The notes under the pieces are model-generated. The model was not told the DNA's origin and did no database searches. It saw only the letters and a program-made list of their open reading frames with translations. This document shows positions 1-7,893 of a stretch of DNA of 8,493 nt, in pieces (the stretch's first letter is position 1; every line of letters begins with the position of its first letter). Location: IMG/VR virus record IMGVR_UViG_2541047885_000003; one strand, 5' to 3'. This DNA comes from a virus (lineage: Duplodnaviria; Heunggongvirae; Uroviricota; Caudoviricetes). The translations under genes and the position numbers were made by a program.

Positions 1-287
1 AGTGTTTGTGCGGCAAGTATGCCAAACCAGTCGGCGGCATTCCGCAGCCGCTTCAGGAGAGCCACGTCAGATAATGTTGCAACGTCATGGAGCTGAGCCC
101 ATGCAGTGACTTCACGTAATGACATCCCCCCGGGGCCGTAAGCCAGCCCCAGACGTAGCAGAGTTGCAGCATCACGAATTTCGCGGCGGCGGGTTAGAGC
201 CCCGGCATTACGTGCCGAAGTATCCAGTTCTTCGGGCTTACCAATATGGGCCAGAATTGCTGACCAGTTATCGTGAGAGTAATTCAT
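1..287 (-). CDS. insL: IS186 transposase, N-terminal ~95 codons (5' partial in window; no stop before the window edge)
   Basis: Minus-strand ATG at 285-287; translation MNYSHDNWSAILAHIGKPEELDTSARNAGALTRRREIRDAATLLRLGLAYGPGGMSLREVTAWAQLHDVATLSDVALLKRLRNAADWFGILAAQT matches my recollection of the IS186 InsL N-terminus. Not in the ORF track because it is truncated by the window edge. Confidence 0.8.
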   Translation of the reverse strand, partial: MNYSHDNWSAILAHIGKPEELDTSARNAGALTRRREIRDAATLLRLGLAYGPGGMSLREVTAWAQLHDVATLSDVALLKRLRNAADWFGILAAQT

Positions 288-319
288 CGGCACGTTAAAT
301 CATATCAGGCGTAATACCA

Positions 320-342
320 CAACCCTTAAGTTAGCGCTTATG
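320..342. repeat. IS186 terminal inverted repeat
   Basis: caacccttaagttagcgcttatg at the element boundary; the flank begins GGGAGAATCCC, the kind of G..C-bracketed target IS186 is known to prefer. Confidence 0.65.
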
Positions 343-397
343 GGGAGAATCCCTCGCCACCTCTGATGTGTCAGGCATCCTCAACGCACCCGCACTT

Positions 398-426
398 AAC
401 CCGCTTCGGCGGGTTTTGTTTTTTCC
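398..426 (+). terminator. Rho-independent terminator
   Basis: 7-bp GC-rich stem aacccgc / gcgggtt (398-404 / 409-415) with ttcg loop, followed by ttgttttttcc. Confidence 0.6.
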
Positions 427-496
427 TGGCATTCTGGTTTACAATTCGCACGCCAGCCTGAACAACTGGCACCTGCTGCGCCAGCAGAGACAACCG

Positions 497-775
497 ATGG
501 CGCACGATACCAAATTACACAATTCTGATGATTCTGCCGTCTTTGCCAGCAGGCACGGGCGGTGTTCCCGCACTTTCAAATCTGACTGGTTCCAGCATCC
601 CCCATGCACTGAAGAACAGGCCGAGTGGCTAATTCAGTGCTACCGCAGACACGGATACGAGATTAAGAAAGCCCTCAGCCTCGATTATCGTCACTGGATA
701 ATCTCCGTCAGGCTTCCTTACTCCGAACGCCCACCGCGTCCGTCCCGCACATTCCAGCAACGCATCTGGAGGTAA
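497..775 (+). CDS. hypothetical small protein; start uncertain (track ORF starts at GTG 368, but that would read through the terminator at 398-426; first in-frame ATG is 497)
   Basis: Only open frame in 368-775; its stop TAA (773-775) sits 1 nt before the GTG start of the next gene, which has a GGAGG Shine-Dalgarno inside this ORF's 3' end (translational coupling). No family recognised; Cys/His-containing. Confidence 0.3.
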   Translation: MAHDTKLHNSDDSAVFASRHGRCSRTFKSDWFQHPPCTEEQAEWLIQCYRRHGYEIKKALSLDYRHWIISVRLPYSERPPRPSRTFQQRIWR

Positions 776-776
776 C

Positions 777-1708
777 GTGCGGGTATTACTTCGATCTGTT
801 CTGGTACCGGAACTCGGGCTGGTGATCGTTAAGCCGGGCCGTGAATCCATGCCGGTATTCCACAATACCCGGTTACTGGTGGAGCCGGAACCGAAAAGCA
901 TGCGTAATCTGCCGTCCGGGGTCGTTCCTGCCGCTCGCCAGCCGCTGGTGGAAGACAAAACATTGCTGCCGTTTTTCAGTAACGCACGGGTGATTCGTGC
1001 TGCTGGTGGTGCTGGTGCATTGTCTGACTGGCTGTTGCGCCATATTAAATCCTGCCAGTGGCCACACGGCGATTATCATCACAGCGAAACCGTCATTCAC
1101 CGTTATGGTACCGGCGCAATGGTGTTGTGCTGGCACTGCGATAACCAGCTGCGTGACCAGACATCCGAATCACTCGAGCAACTTGCTCATCAAAACCTGT
1201 CAGCATGGATGATTGACGTCATCGGTCACGCAATAAGCGGTACGCAGGAGCGTGAATTATCTCTGGCTGAATTATCCTGGTGGGCGGTCCGCAATCAGGT
1301 GGCGGACGCGCTACCGGAAGTGGTATTACGTCGTTCGCTGGGGTTGCGTGCGGAAAAAATCCGCTCAATGTACCGTGAAAGCGACATCGTACCGGGAGAG
1401 CAGACCGCCACCAGCATACTGAAACAGCGCACAAAAAATATTGCGCCGCTGCCTCACGCCCACCAGCAACAGAACCCACCACAGGAAAAGACGGTGGTAA
1501 GCCAGCCGACGATCCCCATCACCTGATTGGTCATGGTCAGGGCGGAATGGGGACAAAATCTCACGATATTTTCACGCTACCGCTGTGTCGGGAGCATCAC
1601 AACGAGCTTCATGCGGATCCTCTGGCGTTCGAAGAAAAGCATGGTTCTCAGGTTGATTTAATTTTTCGTTTTCTTGATCACGCCTTTGCAACTGGCGTGC
1701 TTGGGTAA
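777..1708 (+). pseudogene. DUF968/YdfU-like nin-region protein with C-terminal HNH-like motif, apparently disrupted by a frameshift
   Basis: GTG 777 with GGAGG SD; 249-codon ORF ends at 1526. A second frame (open 1379-1708, no convincing start) encodes DPHHLIGHGQGGMGTKSHDIFTLPLCREHHNELH, an HNH-type signature. The frame change must lie within 1379-1523. The DUF968 assignment is from memory. Confidence 0.5.
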
Positions 1709-1720
1709 AAGAGGTGACTG

Positions 1721-2080
1721 ATGCTCATAGATTTGGTTTTACCTTACCCGCCGACGGTGAACACTTACTGGCGACGCCGTGGCAGCACATATTTTATCTC
1801 GGAGGAGGGAAAGCGTTATCGCCGGGCTGTGGCGCTTATTGTTCGCCAGCAGCGGCTGAAATTAAGCCTGTCCGGAAGGCTGGCGATAAAGGTGATTGCA
1901 GAGCCACCGGATAAGCGTCGTCGCGACCTGGACAATATCCTGAAAGCACCGCTGGATGCGCTGACGCATGCGGGAGTGTTAATGGACGATGAGCAGTTTG
2001 ATGAAATCAATATTGTACGTGGTCAGCCAGTATCTGGTGGACGGCTGGGTGTGAAGATTTACAAAATTGAGAGTGAGTGA
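1721..2080 (+). CDS. rusA: Holliday-junction resolvase RusA
   Basis: 119 aa; strong SD AAGAGGTGA 5 nt upstream of ATG; contains RRRDLDN and LMDDEQFD blocks equivalent to the acidic catalytic residues of E. coli RusA; position just upstream of Q is typical of lambdoid nin regions. Confidence 0.9.
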   Translation: MLIDLVLPYPPTVNTYWRRRGSTYFISEEGKRYRRAVALIVRQQRLKLSLSGRLAIKVIAEPPDKRRRDLDNILKAPLDALTHAGVLMDDEQFDEINIVRGQPVSGGRLGVKIYKIESE

Positions 2081-2643
2081 GCGTAAATATGATATATCCG
2101 GAAATTACAGGCAAAAGCGGCGAGCATTTACGTCTAAAAACGCTGGAAGCAGTCTGGATCCAGGGGAAATTACGGATGTGGGGGCGGTGGTCGTATATTG
2201 GCGGCGGTAAGACGGGAAATATGTTCAACCAATTACTGACCTCTAAAAAGCTGACAAAAACGGCAATTAACGAGGCGCTCCGGAGGATGAAAAAAGCTGG
2301 TCTGGACAAACCTGAACTTGAGGCTTTTTTGCGGGATATGATCAACGGCAATCAAAAAAGCTGGCTGGCACATTGTACCGATTCAGAGGCGTTAATAATC
2401 GACAGGGTTATTGGTGAAGTCCTGGCAGGCTATCCCGGGCTGCTCAATGTCCTGAGTCAGCGTTATGTGGGGCGGGGGATGACTAAGCGCAAAATGGCTG
2501 AACTGCTGAATGATGCACACCCGGAATGGAGTTTAAGAACCTGTGAAAGACGCATTGAGCATTGGCTAAAGGTGGCAGAATTTATTTTGTACAAACCAAT
2601 GGTTATGGCTTTTGGTATAGAGGAAAAAGTTATTGCTTTTTGA
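2077..2643 (+). CDS. late-gene antiterminator Q-like protein (alternative start ATG 2089)
   Basis: 188 aa ORF immediately after rusA and followed within ~80 bp by a strong intrinsic terminator, the canonical Q-PR'-tR' arrangement. Assignment rests mainly on synteny; sequence family not confirmed. Confidence 0.55.
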   Translation: MSVNMIYPEITGKSGEHLRLKTLEAVWIQGKLRMWGRWSYIGGGKTGNMFNQLLTSKKLTKTAINEALRRMKKAGLDKPELEAFLRDMINGNQKSWLAHCTDSEALIIDRVIGEVLAGYPGLLNVLSQRYVGRGMTKRKMAELLNDAHPEWSLRTCERRIEHWLKVAEFILYKPMVMAFGIEEKVIAF

Positions 2644-2720
2644 CGTAAAAACTGCTTCAATTCCGGTACGCTTCGCAAAGCTGTACCACGAGGCGAATAG
2701 CAGACATGGACATTTGAAAG

Positions 2721-2746
2721 AGCCCGCTTTTTGCGGGTTTTTTTAT
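2721..2746 (+). terminator. Rho-independent terminator, tR'-like (end of the short PR' leader transcript)
   Basis: agcccgc-ttttt-gcgggtt hairpin followed by a T7 run (tttttttat). Confidence 0.7.
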
Positions 2747-2867
2747 GCCTGAAAAACGGCACAGAACATTAAACGCGCTGGTGGTTGCGAATACCGGTCT
2801 TTCAGCTTGCTGGCTTTTCCGACAAGAGTTATTGGTATGTTACGTTAACCAGAAAAGGGAAAAAGAC

Positions 2868-3065
2868 ATGCTAAAACAGCAGGATATGACCGAAACCGCC
2901 AGAGTGGTGTTTAATGAGTTAAGCGTCACCGAACCGGCGACAGTCGGGGAGATTGCACAGAATACTTACCTTTCACGCGAACGCTGCCAGTTAATACTGA
3001 CCCAGCTTGTTATGGCGGGTCTGGCAGACTATCAGTTTGGTTGTTACAGACACCTTCAGTCCTGA
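2868..3065 (+). CDS. small (65 aa) putative winged-helix DNA-binding protein, PapI/FaeA-like pattern
   Basis: ATG 2868 preceded by AAAAGGGA SD; MLKQQDMTETARVVFNELSVTEPATVGEIAQNTYLSRERCQLILTQLVMAGLADYQFGCYRHLQS has the name-TxxEIA-helix layout of small wHTH regulators. The track ORF start at 2745 lies inside the tR' T-tract and has no RBS. Confidence 0.45.
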   Translation: MLKQQDMTETARVVFNELSVTEPATVGEIAQNTYLSRERCQLILTQLVMAGLADYQFGCYRHLQS

Positions 3066-3080
3066 AGGCTTTTTTATTTG
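3053..3080 (+). terminator. Rho-independent terminator overlapping the stop codon of the small wHTH ORF
   Basis: ccttca-gtcc-tgaagg stem-loop followed by cttttttatttg. Confidence 0.55.
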
Positions 3081-3394
3081 TGGTAAATGGGCGGCTGGTG
3101 GGTGTGGTGGTTGTTGCTTTCCCGTTGCTGAAAAAGAAAACGCCAGACTGTTAGCCGGGTATCAGTTATCTGGAGAAATTTTTAAATACCTCACAATTCA
3201 GGCGGTTGACTGTTGTCTGGTTTGCGGGGAGTTTGTTAAAAGAAACTGGCATGGTGAATCCCCCTGTGCGGAGGGGCAATCAGCAACTGGTGTTTTGTCA
3301 CCGACCCTTATCCTTTCTGTGCGGGTTCAGGTGCTGATACTGAACTCACCGGGAGGCACCCGGCATCATGCAATGGCACATAGCGCCACTCTCC

Positions 3395-3430
3395 AGCCCC
3401 TCTCCGGAGGGGCTGTTTATATTGATTTTG
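3395..3430 (+). terminator. Rho-independent terminator ending a ~330 bp non-coding stretch
   Basis: Perfect 8-bp stem agcccctc / gaggggct with tccg loop, followed by gtttatattgattttg. On the minus strand it is preceded, not followed, by the U-rich tract, so it is + strand specific. Confidence 0.5.
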
Positions 3431-3446
3431 TCAGATGTGAGTAAAC

Positions 3447-3480
3447 TCCTTATGGACTTTGTTGTTTTAGTCCATAAGGA
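3447..3480. terminator. perfect 12-bp inverted repeat (hairpin) between convergent transcription units; possible bidirectional terminator
   Basis: tccttatggact (3447-3458), 10-nt loop ttgttgtttt, agtccataagga (3469-3480); overlaps the last codons of the minus-strand ORF 3450-3785. Confidence 0.4.
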
Positions 3481-3785
3481 CATATTTGCAGAGTGCAACG
3501 GTTATTAAAGCATTCATTCAATACGTTATCTGTATTTGTAGGACATTCCTGGCTGTTTTTGATTAAATTCCAGAATGTTTTATTGAATGGTGCTACGTTG
3601 TAAATGGTTACAGGTAGCACTTTGTTATTGAGCATGATACCTGTGTGAGTCAGTGTAAATATACTTTCAGGAGGTAAGAAAGCATCCGATTGATACCAGA
3701 TTATTAATTTTATTTTACTCCATATGACTGAAAAAGATATTCCGCATGATGGCTGGATAACTGTATCAATCACAATCCACTTCAT
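3450..3785 (-). CDS. hypothetical protein (111 aa), ORFan in AT-rich island, transcribed opposite to the phage late operon
   Basis: Minus-strand ATG 3783-3785 with AAGGA SD about 6 nt upstream; five Cys in the C-terminal third (QECPTN...[16 protein letters not shown]); base composition far more AT-rich than the flanks. No family recognised. Confidence 0.4.
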
Positions 3786-3825
3786 TTAGTTTCCTTGTTT
3801 ATGTCTTGCTGGTGATGTTCTGAAA

Positions 3826-3852
3826 AGTATAAATGATATTTTTGAATGTAAA
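3826..3852 (-). promoter_or_regulatory. candidate sigma70 promoter for the minus-strand ORFan
   Basis: On the minus strand: -35 TTTACA (3847-3852), 15-nt spacer, -10 TATACT (3826-3831), about 40 nt upstream of the start codon. Spacer is short and AT-rich DNA yields chance matches. Confidence 0.25.
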
Positions 3853-4045
3853 CCATAGAGCAGAATTATTTTTCTGATGTTGTTTATTGTTTATTTAAAT
3901 GCAGGGTGGTTTATATCTCGTCTTGTAGTTTATCCATGCATATCTGCTTGATGATGAGGTTTTTATTTAAGGTATGGTTTTGTGTTTTTTCTGTATTACA
4001 TGTCAGGTATTTTAAAGAATTATTTTTCAGATGGTGGAAAGAACC

Positions 4046-6006
4046 ATGGCATTTAAACACTATGATGTTGTCAGGGCGGCATCGCCGTCAGACCTTGCGA
4101 AACGACTGACACAAAAACTGAAGGAGGGGTGGCAGCCATTTGGCAGTCCGGTGGCCATCACGCCTTATACCCTGATGCAGGCCATTGCGGCGGAAGGTGA
4201 TGTCACCACACCTGTGGTGGTGAAGCCGTCGGATGGAGAAGGCGCAGTTATCAGCACCACCAGCAACCCGGAGTATTACTTTGTTGTTGCCCTAGCCGGG
4301 CGGTCAAACGGTATGGCGTATGGTGAAGGGCTTCCGCTGCCGGAGACATATGACCGTCCGGACCCGCGTATTAAACAGCTGGCGCGTCGCAGCACTGTCA
4401 CGCCGGGTGGTGCGTCCTGTAACTACAATGACATTATTCCTGCGGACCACTGCCTGCATGATGTTCAGGATTTGAGTAAGTTTTCACACCCGAAAGCCAG
4501 CGCAGCTCAGTATGGATGCGTGGGGCAGGGATTACATATCGCGAAGAAATTGTTGCCGTTTATTCCGGCGAATGCCGGTATTCTTCTGGTTCCGTGCTGC
4601 CGTGGTGGTTCTGCATTTTTGGCGGGCGATGAAGGTACCTTCAGCGAATCCACCGGCGCAAGCGAGACCTCGGCACGCTGGGGTGTTGATAAGCCACTGT
4701 ACAAGGACCTGCTTACCCGTACTCAGGCCGCACTGAAGGCCAACCCTAAAAATATTCTGCTTGCAGTGGTCTGGATGCAGGGCGAGTTTGATTTGAAACA
4801 GGGTGCATACGCCACTCAGCCGGGGCTGTTTGATTCCATGGTGGAAAAATATCGTTCTGACCTGTCGGAATTCGGAGGTCAGTGTCTCGGGGGCTCTCCG
4901 TCATCAGTTCCCTGGATTTGTGGCGACACGACCTACTACTGGAAGCAGACTTATTCTTCGCAATACGATGCGGTGTATGGTGCATATAAGACGAAATCCG
5001 CAAAAAAATCTTCTTTGTGCCGTTTATGACGGATGAAAACGGGCGAAATGTGGGTACCAACGAGCCGTCAGAAGATCCGGATGTTGCGGATATTGGGTAT
5101 TACGGAGCCGGTGGTCGAACGGACGCCAAAACCTGGACGACGGCCGACCGTAAAACGCATTTTGGATCATGGGCACGTCGTGGGATTATTTCCGACCGTC
5201 TGGCAACGGCGATTCTTGTGCATGCCGGGAGAAACGCTGAATTCATTACCGGAAAACAGCCTGATACGGTGAAGCCCACCGGACCTTCCGGTGAAGGTAC
5301 GGAGAGAGAGCCGGAAGCCCCGGTCAGTAACCGAACCCTGATGAGTCTGCTGGCGTCCGGCGAAGACCTGGCATCACAGGGCTGGCGCTATTATCACAAA
5401 CCGGCGAGCGGAGACAATGTTAACAAAAACATTGCTGAAGCGGTGGTCAGTGATGCGGGGGCTACGGGAGGTAAGGCCCTGCAACTGAATAAACCGGAAA
5501 ACCACATCTGGTTTCTGGAGCATGATGCAGCCGGACAGGGAGTGGAGTTACTGAAGAAGGGGGGACGTGTGAGCGTACGGTTTAAGTTGCCGGGTTCACT
5601 GGTGCCGAATCAGTTTGCCCTGGGCATTTACTGGCAGTTGTCGTCCCTGCCGGAGGGAGTGACGCTGGCAGAGGAAGGCAACGACATGCTGATGTCCTTC
5701 TTCCTGCAGACGGATGCGACGAACCTGAACGCGATGCACCACAAGAAGCCGAATGCGAAGCTGGATACGTTCGGGGTCTTTGATAACGGATGGCACACAC
5801 TGGCTTTTGAGTTTGCCGGAAACAACAGCATTCAGGTGACGCCGGTACTGGATGAGAAACGGGGGACGCCGTTCACACTGGTGAAATCTCCGGCATCAGG
5901 GGCGGCGGACAAACTGCAACTGACAGGCATATCAAAGGCGGCGACATATACGCTGCTGATTGACAGTGTGAAGGTGGAAGTGAACAACGCGGATGCCGCG
6001 GCATGA
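4046..6006 (+). pseudogene. nanS: prophage sialate O-acetylesterase (NanS-p-like: N-terminal DUF1737-like region + SGNH/SASA esterase + C-terminal domain), interrupted by a frameshift at an A7 tract (5002-5008)
   Basis: Frame A 4046-5029 (MAFKHYDVVRAASPSDL..., contains the GRSNG esterase block) and frame B 5017-6006 together total ~655 codons, the size of intact NanS-p as I recall it. The frames overlap at gcAAAAAAAtc; adding one A (or removing two) fuses them into ...SAKKIFFVPFMTDENG.... Confidence 0.65.
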
Positions 6007-6142
6007 TAAAAAAAGGCCGCCAGCGGCAGGAATGGAAGCTGGCGGAGGTAATCCCAATGGAGAATGTAAAGAAAAGATGCTTTCGTATATCGGTTTTTTA
6101 AATGAAAACAGTTCTCATTGTCAACCATAACGGTAAGAAATT

Positions 6143-6325
6143 ATGACATTTATTCATCAGGTGATGCTGTACTTCTGTACGGCAGTCTGTGTTATGTATC
6201 TTCTTTCGGGTGGGTACAGGGCAGTGCGCGATTTCTGGCGCAGGCAGATTGATAAAAGGGCCGCTGAGAGAATCAGCGCCAGTCAGTCAGCCGGAAGCAA
6301 ACCCGAAGATCCGCTCATTCCGTAG
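6143..6325 (+). CDS. hypothetical small protein (60 aa) with one hydrophobic segment
   Basis: ATG 6143 with a weak RBS; N-terminal VMLYFCTAVCVMYLL looks like a single transmembrane helix. Overlaps the implausible N-terminal extension of the 6189 track ORF. Confidence 0.3.
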   Translation: MTFIHQVMLYFCTAVCVMYLLSGGYRAVRDFWRRQIDKRAAERISASQSAGSKPEDPLIP

Positions 6326-6362
6326 TCACTTTCTTGACAACACCTTTCAACGAGAAAATCCC

Positions 6363-6608
6363 ATGTCAGAAATCACATCCCTGGTCACTGCTGAGGCAGT
6401 GAAGGAAGTCCTGCGCTCTGAAGAAGTCCTGAGCGCACTGAAACAGAAACTCCGCCAGAACCTTGAGGCGCGTCTTGATGCAGAAGTGGATGCCATTCTG
6501 GATGAGCTGCTGGGCGTACCAGCGGTTCCGGAGCCGGAAGGTATCGCGGGTGACGGGAGTGCTTCAGATGGCGGTGAACCCACACCTGACAGCGACATGA
6601 TGATGTAA
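6363..6608 (+). CDS. hypothetical small acidic protein (81 aa)
   Basis: ATG 6363 (internal Met of track ORF 6189-6608); helical N-terminal half and strongly acidic Pro/Gly/Asp-rich tail ([26 protein letters not shown]). Small ORFs occupy this position between nanS-p and the holin in Stx-type prophages. Confidence 0.45.
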
Positions 6609-6684
6609 GCCTGCGCAAGGGACCATCGGTGTGTGCCGGTGGTCTTTATATTGTTGTGAGCTTCCGGATAACGGGAGACGGGGT

Positions 6685-6900
6685 ATGTACCAGATGGAAA
6701 AAATCACAACAGGTGTGTCATACACCACGTCAGCGGTGGGAACGGGCTACTGGTTCCTGCAGTTGCTGGACAGGGTTTCCCCGTCTCAGTGGGCGGCAAT
6801 AGGCGTGCTGGGGAGTCTGCTGTTTGGGCTGCTGACGTACCTGACTAACCTGTATTTCAAAATCAAAGAGGACCGGCGTAAGGCGGCGCGGGGAGAGTAA
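6685..6900 (+). CDS. S: class II holin, phage 21 S-type (pinholin-like), with possible dual start (Met1 6685 / Met4 6694)
   Basis: [71 protein letters not shown]: two transmembrane segments plus a charged C-terminus; near-identical in pattern to the S21/933W-type holins as I remember them; GGGAGA SD upstream. Confidence 0.85.
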
Positions 6901-6904
6901 AGTG

Positions 6905-7393
6905 ATGAATAAAAAATATGAACTGGTTGTTAAGGGGATAAATAATTACGGGGATAAGGTTACTGTTACTGTGAAGCCGGAAGGTGACGGGCAAGCGTCG
7001 CTGTTGTTGCCAGATGTGGCGATTAGTCTTGACCGTACTGAAGGTGCCACGCTGGAGTTTTACGAAGCTGAGGCGAAAAAGCAGGCGAAGCAGTTTTTCA
7101 TGGATGTTGCTGCCGGGTTATGTGAAGGGAACGAACCGTTGCCGGAAAAGCGCCCCATAATTTTAGAGGCGCAGGATGTGTTGATAACCTACAAAGGAAA
7201 GCTACCGGGAAGAATTACTGATGCTCTGAAGATGCCGCCGTCAACACTGCGGTCAGAAAAAGATGATGTTGAATCACGTATTGAAAAACTGGAGCGCTAT
7301 ATCGCTGAATTGAAAAAAAGCGCCCCAACAAAAAATGAGGTGCTTGCAGCAGATGAAATGAAAGAAGCTATTCTTGATCGCGCGGGCATCTAA
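6905..7393 (+). CDS. hypothetical protein (162 aa) inside the lysis cassette; possibly DUF1327/YdfR-like
   Basis: ATG 6905 (GTG 6902 also in frame) with GGAGAG SD overlapping the holin stop; beta-rich N-terminal half and a predicted coiled-coil C-terminus (ESRIEKLERYIAELKK). The family guess is from memory of the essQ-ydfR-rrrQ arrangement in the Qin prophage and is unverified. Confidence 0.55.
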   Translation: MNKKYELVVKGINNYGDKVTVTVKPEGDGQASLLLPDVAISLDRTEGATLEFYEAEAKKQAKQFFMDVAAGLCEGNEPLPEKRPIILEAQDVLITYKGKLPGRITDALKMPPSTLRSEKDDVESRIEKLERYIAELKKSAPTKNEVLAADEMKEAILDRAGI

Positions 7394-7407
7394 GCTGCGC
7401 TTCACGA

Positions 7408-7893
7408 TTGAAAGAGCATCTTCAGCGGCCTGAAGAAAAACGCCGCGATGAGCAGTTTGCTGCGTTTGACGATTATTGTCGGAAAGTGATGAGCAGAAAT
7501 CTCGCAGAGTGTTTCAGTATTCATAATGATAATTTCAGTGAGCTGGAATGGGAGTGTAACCGGCCATCCTTTGTTGTATCCGGTGATGCTGGGAAAATAA
7601 CCATCTCAGAAAATGGGAAAGTAACACCTCCATCGCACCAGCACAGTGAGGAGCTCATTGAATTTGCCATTGATTACCTGAAGAACAATAAAAAGCAGGG
7701 GCTGATGAAGCGCGTTGGCCGTTGCATGGGATATCTTCAGGTAGCCGCTGAGATTGAAGCGCTGGCCAGTGGTGCTGATAAGGATGCAATTGTGCGGGAG
7801 GCTCTTCTTCGTGATTTTAATACTCCACCCTTTAAAAAAGTGCCGGCTTACTGGCTTCATCCGGGGCTGACTTATCTTAAAGTGCGTATTTAG
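7408..7893 (+). CDS. hypothetical protein (161 aa from TTG 7408; 134 aa if ATG 7489 is used)
   Basis: Long open frame filling the gap up to the endolysin; no convincing SD for either start. No family recognised. Confidence 0.45.
   Translation: MKEHLQRPEEKRRDEQFAAFDDYCRKVMSRNLAECFSIHNDNFSELEWECNRPSFVVSGDAGKITISENGKVTPPSHQHSEELIEFAIDYLKNNKKQGLMKRVGRCMGYLQVAAEIEALASGADKDAIVREALLRDFNTPPFKKVPAYWLHPGLTYLKVRI

Follow-up and report, generated by a model that had tools for sequence, protein, structure and literature searches.

In the DNA analyzed here (8,493 nucleotides, hereafter the window), the motif of a putative nuclease is found in a different reading frame from the ORF that should contain it, and the question was whether this split corresponds to a dead gene, a programmed frameshift, an artefact or a retained shorter product. 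The ORF list contained an ORF of 249 codons at 777-1526 on the plus strand. Relative to it, the -1 frame opens at 1379, the base that follows a TGA at 1376-1378, and runs to the stop codon at 1706-1708. Its translation contained ...GKPADDPHHLIGHGQGGMGTKSHDIFTLPLCREHHNELH... (in a longer stretch of the product, …GKPADDPHHLIGHGQGGMGTKSHDIFTLPLCREHHNELHADP…VLG*), with the motif DPHH...CREHHNELH.

Structure of the DUF968 locus

The first ATG, GTG or TTG in the -1 frame of the ORF list is located at 1547, with none before it. Because this position is downstream of DPHH, the whole motif lacks a usable start. The original prediction had stated that the ORF 777-1526 is devoid of the nuclease-type motif, which would be encoded at 1379-1708 in the -1 frame, and the ORF list, the translation and Pfam agreed in this respect.

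Both fragments were compared with the Pfam profile of DUF968 (PF06147; gathering cutoff, 27.8 bits). The ORF 777-1526 matched profile positions 1-75 only (E 5e-14, 53 bits), and the -1 frame piece matched positions 105-171 (E 2.5e-32, 112.7 bits). Both values were above the cutoff, and an intact relative reached 255 bits. Profile positions 76-104 were absent from the window, and no single frame spanned the domain since its two halves lay in different frames. In PHROG 96 ('HNH endonuclease', 334 positions), the ORF 777-1526 covered positions 1-222 and a 53-aa ORF within the remnant covered 282-333; an intact protein covered 1-333 of the same profile. These matches indicate that both pieces are real DUF968 homologues and not chance resemblances, and that the window copy is a pseudogene member of this family. 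The features of the locus were as follows:

497..775, plus strand: small upstream ORF, hypothetical, 92 aa, intact; counterpart of WP_032141837.1 of ATCC 25922, with positions carried over from the annotation of the ATCC 25922 locus, L001 (2798-3076; offset 2301), a 92-aa gene being also called here in the source scaffold, L005
777..1526, plus strand: truncated DUF968 ORF, 249 aa; native to residue ~242 (…QEKTVVS), then 7 out-of-frame residues (QPTIPIT) and a TGA at 1524-1526; from Pfam, PHROG 96 and the alignment to 13 intact homologues
1494..1498, plus strand: deletion junction, a single retained GTGGT; from the DNA alignment to ATCC 25922, the BLAST overlap and a GTGGT scan
1496..1708, plus strand: what is left of the C-terminal His-Me/HNH-like core (GKPADDPHH…CREHHNELH…VLG*), stranded in the -1 frame versus 777-1526 and without the upstream CxxC pair; from translation and Pfam
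1547..1708, plus strand: 53-aa ATG ORF within the remnant, starting after the DPHH histidines; from the ORF list and PHROG 96
1721..2080, plus strand: rusA (Holliday-junction resolvase), intact and in its usual place downstream of a DUF968 gene; annotated as RusA in ATCC 25922, with a PF05866 match in L005
2077-2643: DUF1133 Q-like gene, intact

The remnant at 1496-1708 was 99% identical to the C-terminus of an intact homologue (P0003). In the public assemblies L005-L012, the 53-aa ORF at 1547-1708 was a separate gene call with a Pfam match to DUF968. This short product cannot form a complete nuclease core because its start falls after the DPHH histidines.

The 118-bp deletion and its occurrence

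Window 700-1800 was compared by megablast with 5,426 complete E. coli genomes, and most of the query was covered in 2,139 of them. The best matches were 99.6-99.7% identical and always consisted of two pieces, with an intact span of 1219 bp versus 1101 in the window. The alignment to the intact allele of ATCC 25922, which encodes a 349-aa protein annotated as 'DUF968 domain-containing protein' (WP_001265310.1), revealed a single gap in the window, clean and 118 bp long, with no further indel. The frameshift or small deletion that the original prediction had placed within 1379-1523 was located in this manner, as a 118-bp deletion with its junction at 1494-1498.

The BLAST pieces overlapped at window 1494-1502, and their offsets differed by 118. 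The intact allele has the pentamer GTGGT at L001 3795 and 3913, 118 bp apart, and these were the sole two copies in L001 3701-4000. Their contexts, GTGGTcAGC and GTGGTaAGC, share 8 of 9 bases, the exact microhomology being 5 bp. A junction microhomology of at least 5 bases is expected in ~0.5% of random joins (~0.005). The lost segment corresponded approximately to residues 241-280 of the 349-aa intact protein (…SIAVDPESPESFMKRPKRRRWVNEKYKRWVKTQPCAC(C)…), and the frame shifts because 118 is 3×39+1, that is, 39 codons plus 1 base, and not a multiple of 3.

The reading that we favor, with a probability of about 0.93, is that the window carries a dead copy of the DUF968/YdfU gene of the lambdoid-prophage nin region, generated by a 118-bp deletion between GTGGT pentamers. 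An ancestor of the window allele lost the 118 bp between the two GTGGT copies and kept one of them, and the signature of the junction points to replication slippage (slipped-strand) or to microhomology-mediated end joining as the mechanism. The deletion took residues ~241-280, and with them the two cysteines of the invariant CxxC zinc knuckle. Translation from 777 then meets 7 aberrant codons and ends at 1526, and the DPHH…CxxHHNxxH core at 1496-1708 is untranslatable within the protein.

An artefact of sequencing or assembly in a draft genome would also produce such a split, and the original prediction had named indel-type sequencing errors among the possible causes. The window was 100% identical to scaffold KE701649.1 of GCA_000460275.1, from the clinical isolate E. 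coli UMEA 3139-1, in which the 249-aa product is EQW95958.1 ('phage protein'). The scaffold belongs to a draft assembly and has N-gaps close to the locus. In addition, the 30-nt junction was absent from the GTDB representative genomes and the JGI metagenomes, and an 81-nt junction query against the 5,426 complete E. coli genomes gave two-piece matches only, all of them undeleted alleles. Nevertheless, an exact-protein look-up retrieved the identical 249-aa product on at least 17 contigs, from 4 draft genomes at NCBI, several human-gut metagenomes at ENA and IMG/VR (one contig). The same junction and ORF were present in these contigs, which came from independent projects and assemblers (MEGAHIT and SPAdes for those from ENA); the IMG/VR contig contained the junction and was 100% identical to window 268-6735. 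Moreover, two of the contigs carried different flanking sequence, and a clean loss of 118 bp is atypical of base-calling error. Sequencing error was rejected for the DUF968 locus because the identical allele occurred in at least 17 independent contigs, and an artefactual origin of the split is scarcely conceivable.

The two contigs with different flanks, both metagenomic, were 100% identical at the nucleotide level to the deleted allele over window 722-1917 (L009, 2412-3871; L010, 1-1846). In L009 the upstream region was diverged, containing Rem and a gene for an M78 peptidase, and IS186 was missing; L010 had a different Q antiterminator family downstream. These comparisons indicate that the deleted allele is identical by descent and was moved or re-flanked by lambdoid mosaic recombination. 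Such sharing across mosaics does not show that the split form is selected for.

Conserved residues and alternative products

The protein search yielded 1430 homologues, and the best 120 of these 1430 were nearly all single-frame proteins of ~349-352 aa. In an alignment of 13 intact homologues, 79-97% identical to the first, the CxxC pair (C276 and C279), DDPHH, C310, H314 and H318 were invariant. C276 and C279 fall within the deleted segment or at its edge, and the window does not encode them; the second zinc pair, C310/H313, is present. The structural zinc site of His-Me finger/HNH nucleases is formed by two Cys/His pairs (CxxC … CxxC/H), of which the window copy is without the first. The DPHH…CREHHNELH motif, invariant among the homologues, is encoded at 1496-1708 out of frame with the ORF 777-1526.

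Similarity to HNHc_6 and to YbcO was weak. The match to Pfam HNHc_6 reached 22.2 bits (16.2 bits for the window fragment), below the cutoff of 26.6. The top match of a profile search of the PDB was 3g27 (YbcO), over residues 276-325 and non-significant (E 0.42), and a PDB search with the single sequence gave no match. An AlphaFold2 model of an intact homologue, built from the 13-sequence alignment, had low confidence (mean pLDDT 45.8). NCBIfam contained no model for the DUF968 protein. No assay of a DUF968 protein was found in a literature search, and we know of no biochemical demonstration of nuclease activity for the intact proteins.

The undeleted form is present in the functional phages Evi and mEp460_ev081. 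DUF968 has been placed together with DUF1364/YbcO (PDB 3g27) in group 7 of the His-Me finger superfamily, with RusA and Q as typical neighbors of DUF968 genes (Jablonska et al., 2017; PMC5714182), and a zinc-finger HNH C-terminus has been described for DUF968 proteins (PMC4118853). Intact DUF968/YdfU proteins are predicted to be His-Me (HNH-type) zinc-finger nucleases encoded beside rusA, a classification that follows PMC5714182. The predicted nuclease function would be lost in the window allele.

Regarding the N-terminal region, the motif at window 1053-1145 (residues 93-123 of the ORF 777-1526) was visually similar to the C-terminal HH…CxxHHN His-Me core, and the low-confidence AlphaFold2 model contained a beta-beta-alpha element at residues 105-126. 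In PHROGs, phrog_11007 comprises the N-terminal 134 aa only and phrog_23141 the C-terminal ~71 aa only. These two families suggest that split or fragmentary DUF968 annotations recur in phage records.

A programmed -1 ribosomal frameshift could in principle join the ORF 777-1526 to the HNH-like frame and give a functional fusion. The original prediction had proposed a search for slippery heptamers, and the only X_XXY_YYZ heptamer in the zero frame within 1379-1526 was A_AAA_AAT, at 1433-1439, upstream of the stop codon; a -1 slip at this site would read on to 1708. This heptamer, however, was unchanged in the intact single-frame alleles, so that it is not an adaptation to the split, and the 91 nt that follow it (window 1440-1530) were less stable than shuffled sequences (-14.6 kcal/mol versus a shuffle mean of -18.4, z = +1.31). 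Furthermore, the slipped product would exchange ~20 native residues for unrelated sequence and would still be without the invariant CxxC pair and ~39 conserved residues. A two-frame layout conserved among homologues, which the original prediction had also considered, was not observed in any of the 13 aligned homologues, all single-frame, or among the listed matches, and was restricted to copies that were 100% identical at the DNA level. With the heptamer shared by intact alleles, no downstream structure and no two-frame layout in the diverged homologues examined, programmed frameshifting was rejected, and we give it practically no weight.

It is also conceivable, although very unlikely, that the 249-aa protein, alone or together with the 53-aa ORF, has been retained as a functional derivative, for instance as an N-terminal module that binds DNA or acts in regulation and works without the C-terminal nuclease. 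Conservation is high over the N-terminal 160 residues, among which C93, H101, H102, C118, C121, D122 and N123 are invariant, and the truncated ORF that keeps them could preserve some activity, which is a point against a completely dead gene. A stand-alone N-terminal family also exists in PHROGs (the 134-aa phrog_11007), and the allele persists in three mosaic contexts. Its 100% nucleotide identity in these three flanking contexts fits neutral hitch-hiking, although retention by selection would be compatible with it as well. Nevertheless, since all of the copies are identical by descent, they give no sign that the split form is under purifying selection. The comparison of N-terminal and C-terminal profiles was non-significant (hhalign, 9 columns, E 0.12), Pfam at E<=10 gave nothing relevant in the N-terminal part, and the same prophage carries other degenerative lesions. 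More specifically, the N-terminal motif C93…H101-H102…C118-x2-C121-D-N might constitute a shorter second His-Me/zinc-knuckle module, still able to bind or cut DNA when the C-terminal domain is missing. If true, this second module would explain the persistence of a 100% identical deleted allele in three prophage mosaics; we consider it highly improbable. The loss of the gene by the 118-bp deletion is the reading retained in what follows.

Other lesions of the prophage and comparison with known systems

The window begins inside an IS186 copy, directly after a 695-N scaffold gap. The features of this end were as follows:

1..342, minus strand: right end of the IS186 copy, with the terminal inverted repeat CATAAGCGCTAACTTAAGGGTTG (reverse strand) at 320-342; from L005 and the comparison with ATCC 25922
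343..352, no strand: IS186 target-site duplication of 10-11 bp, GGGAGAATCC, with a GGGG…CCC target; the uninterrupted allele has this site just after hokD

In L005, the inverted repeats of IS186 were found at 4144-4166 and 5544-5566 (~1.4 kb apart), with the 695-N gap between them. The decamer GGGAGAATCC was also present immediately to the left of IS186 in L005, and it occurred once in ATCC 25922 (L001 2644), where the locus has no IS at this site. The IS186 insertion of the original prediction was thus borne out by the inverted repeats, the 10-11 bp target duplication and the uninterrupted site of ATCC 25922. A second IS was observed upstream in L005 at 1181-2220, as rve_3/HTH_Tnp_1 fragments around another N-run.

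The nanS-p-like SASA/DUF6645 esterase gene (~4046-6006) is split into the ORFs 4031-5029 and 5017-6006. Compared with the intact gene of strain Ecol_745, it has lost 1 A from the A-run at ~4995-5001; the nanS-p frameshift that had been predicted corresponds to this 1-nt loss near 5001. A homopolymer miscall is improbable as the cause of this loss, because the same A7 run was found in the independent assemblies L002 and L006. In ATCC 25922, the nanS-p-like gene carries a different, independent frameshift, a +G near window 5558.

Two other regions were noted in the window. At 7300-7450 (151 bp), ATCC 25922 and Ecol_745 have 53 unrelated bp instead, and YdfR/DUF1327 is annotated as partial in them; the window contains a complete 163-aa DUF1327 ORF (6902-7393) followed by a 161-aa ORF (7408-7893). 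An IraM/PmrD-like anti-adapter gene (111 aa, 3450-3785, minus strand; IraM in ATCC 25922) lies between the Q-like gene and nanS-p, as a host-physiology 'moron' carried by the prophage.

In this strain the prophage has at least three lesions (the DUF968 deletion, IS186 and the nanS-p frameshift), which supports the description of the element as decaying. The original prediction had gone further and called it a decaying, probably cryptic prophage. Crypticity was not demonstrated: the genes affected by the three lesions include none with a known essential role in lytic growth, and the closest relative, found beside potC in ATCC 25922, is a full-length lambdoid prophage that extends from int/xis through the tail genes.

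The locus is an ordinary pseudogene of an already known family and represents no new arrangement. Its significance goes little beyond annotation: 777-1526 and 1547-1708, listed in public drafts as separate 'phage protein' or DUF968 genes, should be combined into a single annotation, marked as a pseudogene that arose by a 118-bp deletion. It provides a clean small case of gene decay, probably microhomology-mediated, in a lambdoid prophage of E. coli, and of a pseudogene allele carried between mosaic prophage backgrounds via recombination. It has no bearing on the open questions about HNH nucleases or recoding.

Among known systems, the window copy most resembles YdfU/DUF968 of lambdoid prophages (WP_001265310.1 of ATCC 25922 and YdfU of the K-12 Qin prophage). 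It shares 99.7% DNA identity outside the deletion and the same neighbors, with hokD and the small ORF upstream and rusA and the Q-like antiterminator downstream, and it differs in being frameshifted and in lacking the 118 bp that encode residues ~241-280, CxxC included. DUF968 has in common with YbcO/DUF1364 (3g27) and His-Me group 7 the C-terminal core CxxC…HH…CxxH/C-H-N-xx-H. The similarity to YbcO/DUF1364 is nonetheless weak (E 0.42), DUF968 proteins are ~250 aa longer with an uncharacterized N-terminal region, and the window copy is without the first zinc ligand pair. The closest parallel for the lesion itself is provided by the microhomology-mediated pseudogenes of decaying prophages, in which a short direct repeat flanks the lost segment, one copy of it is left, the result is out of frame and further lesions are found in the same element, here IS186 and the homopolymer frameshift in nanS-p. 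The window copy shows no unusual difference from these pseudogenes, its microhomology being only 5 bp when counted exactly (8/9 bases over the wider context).
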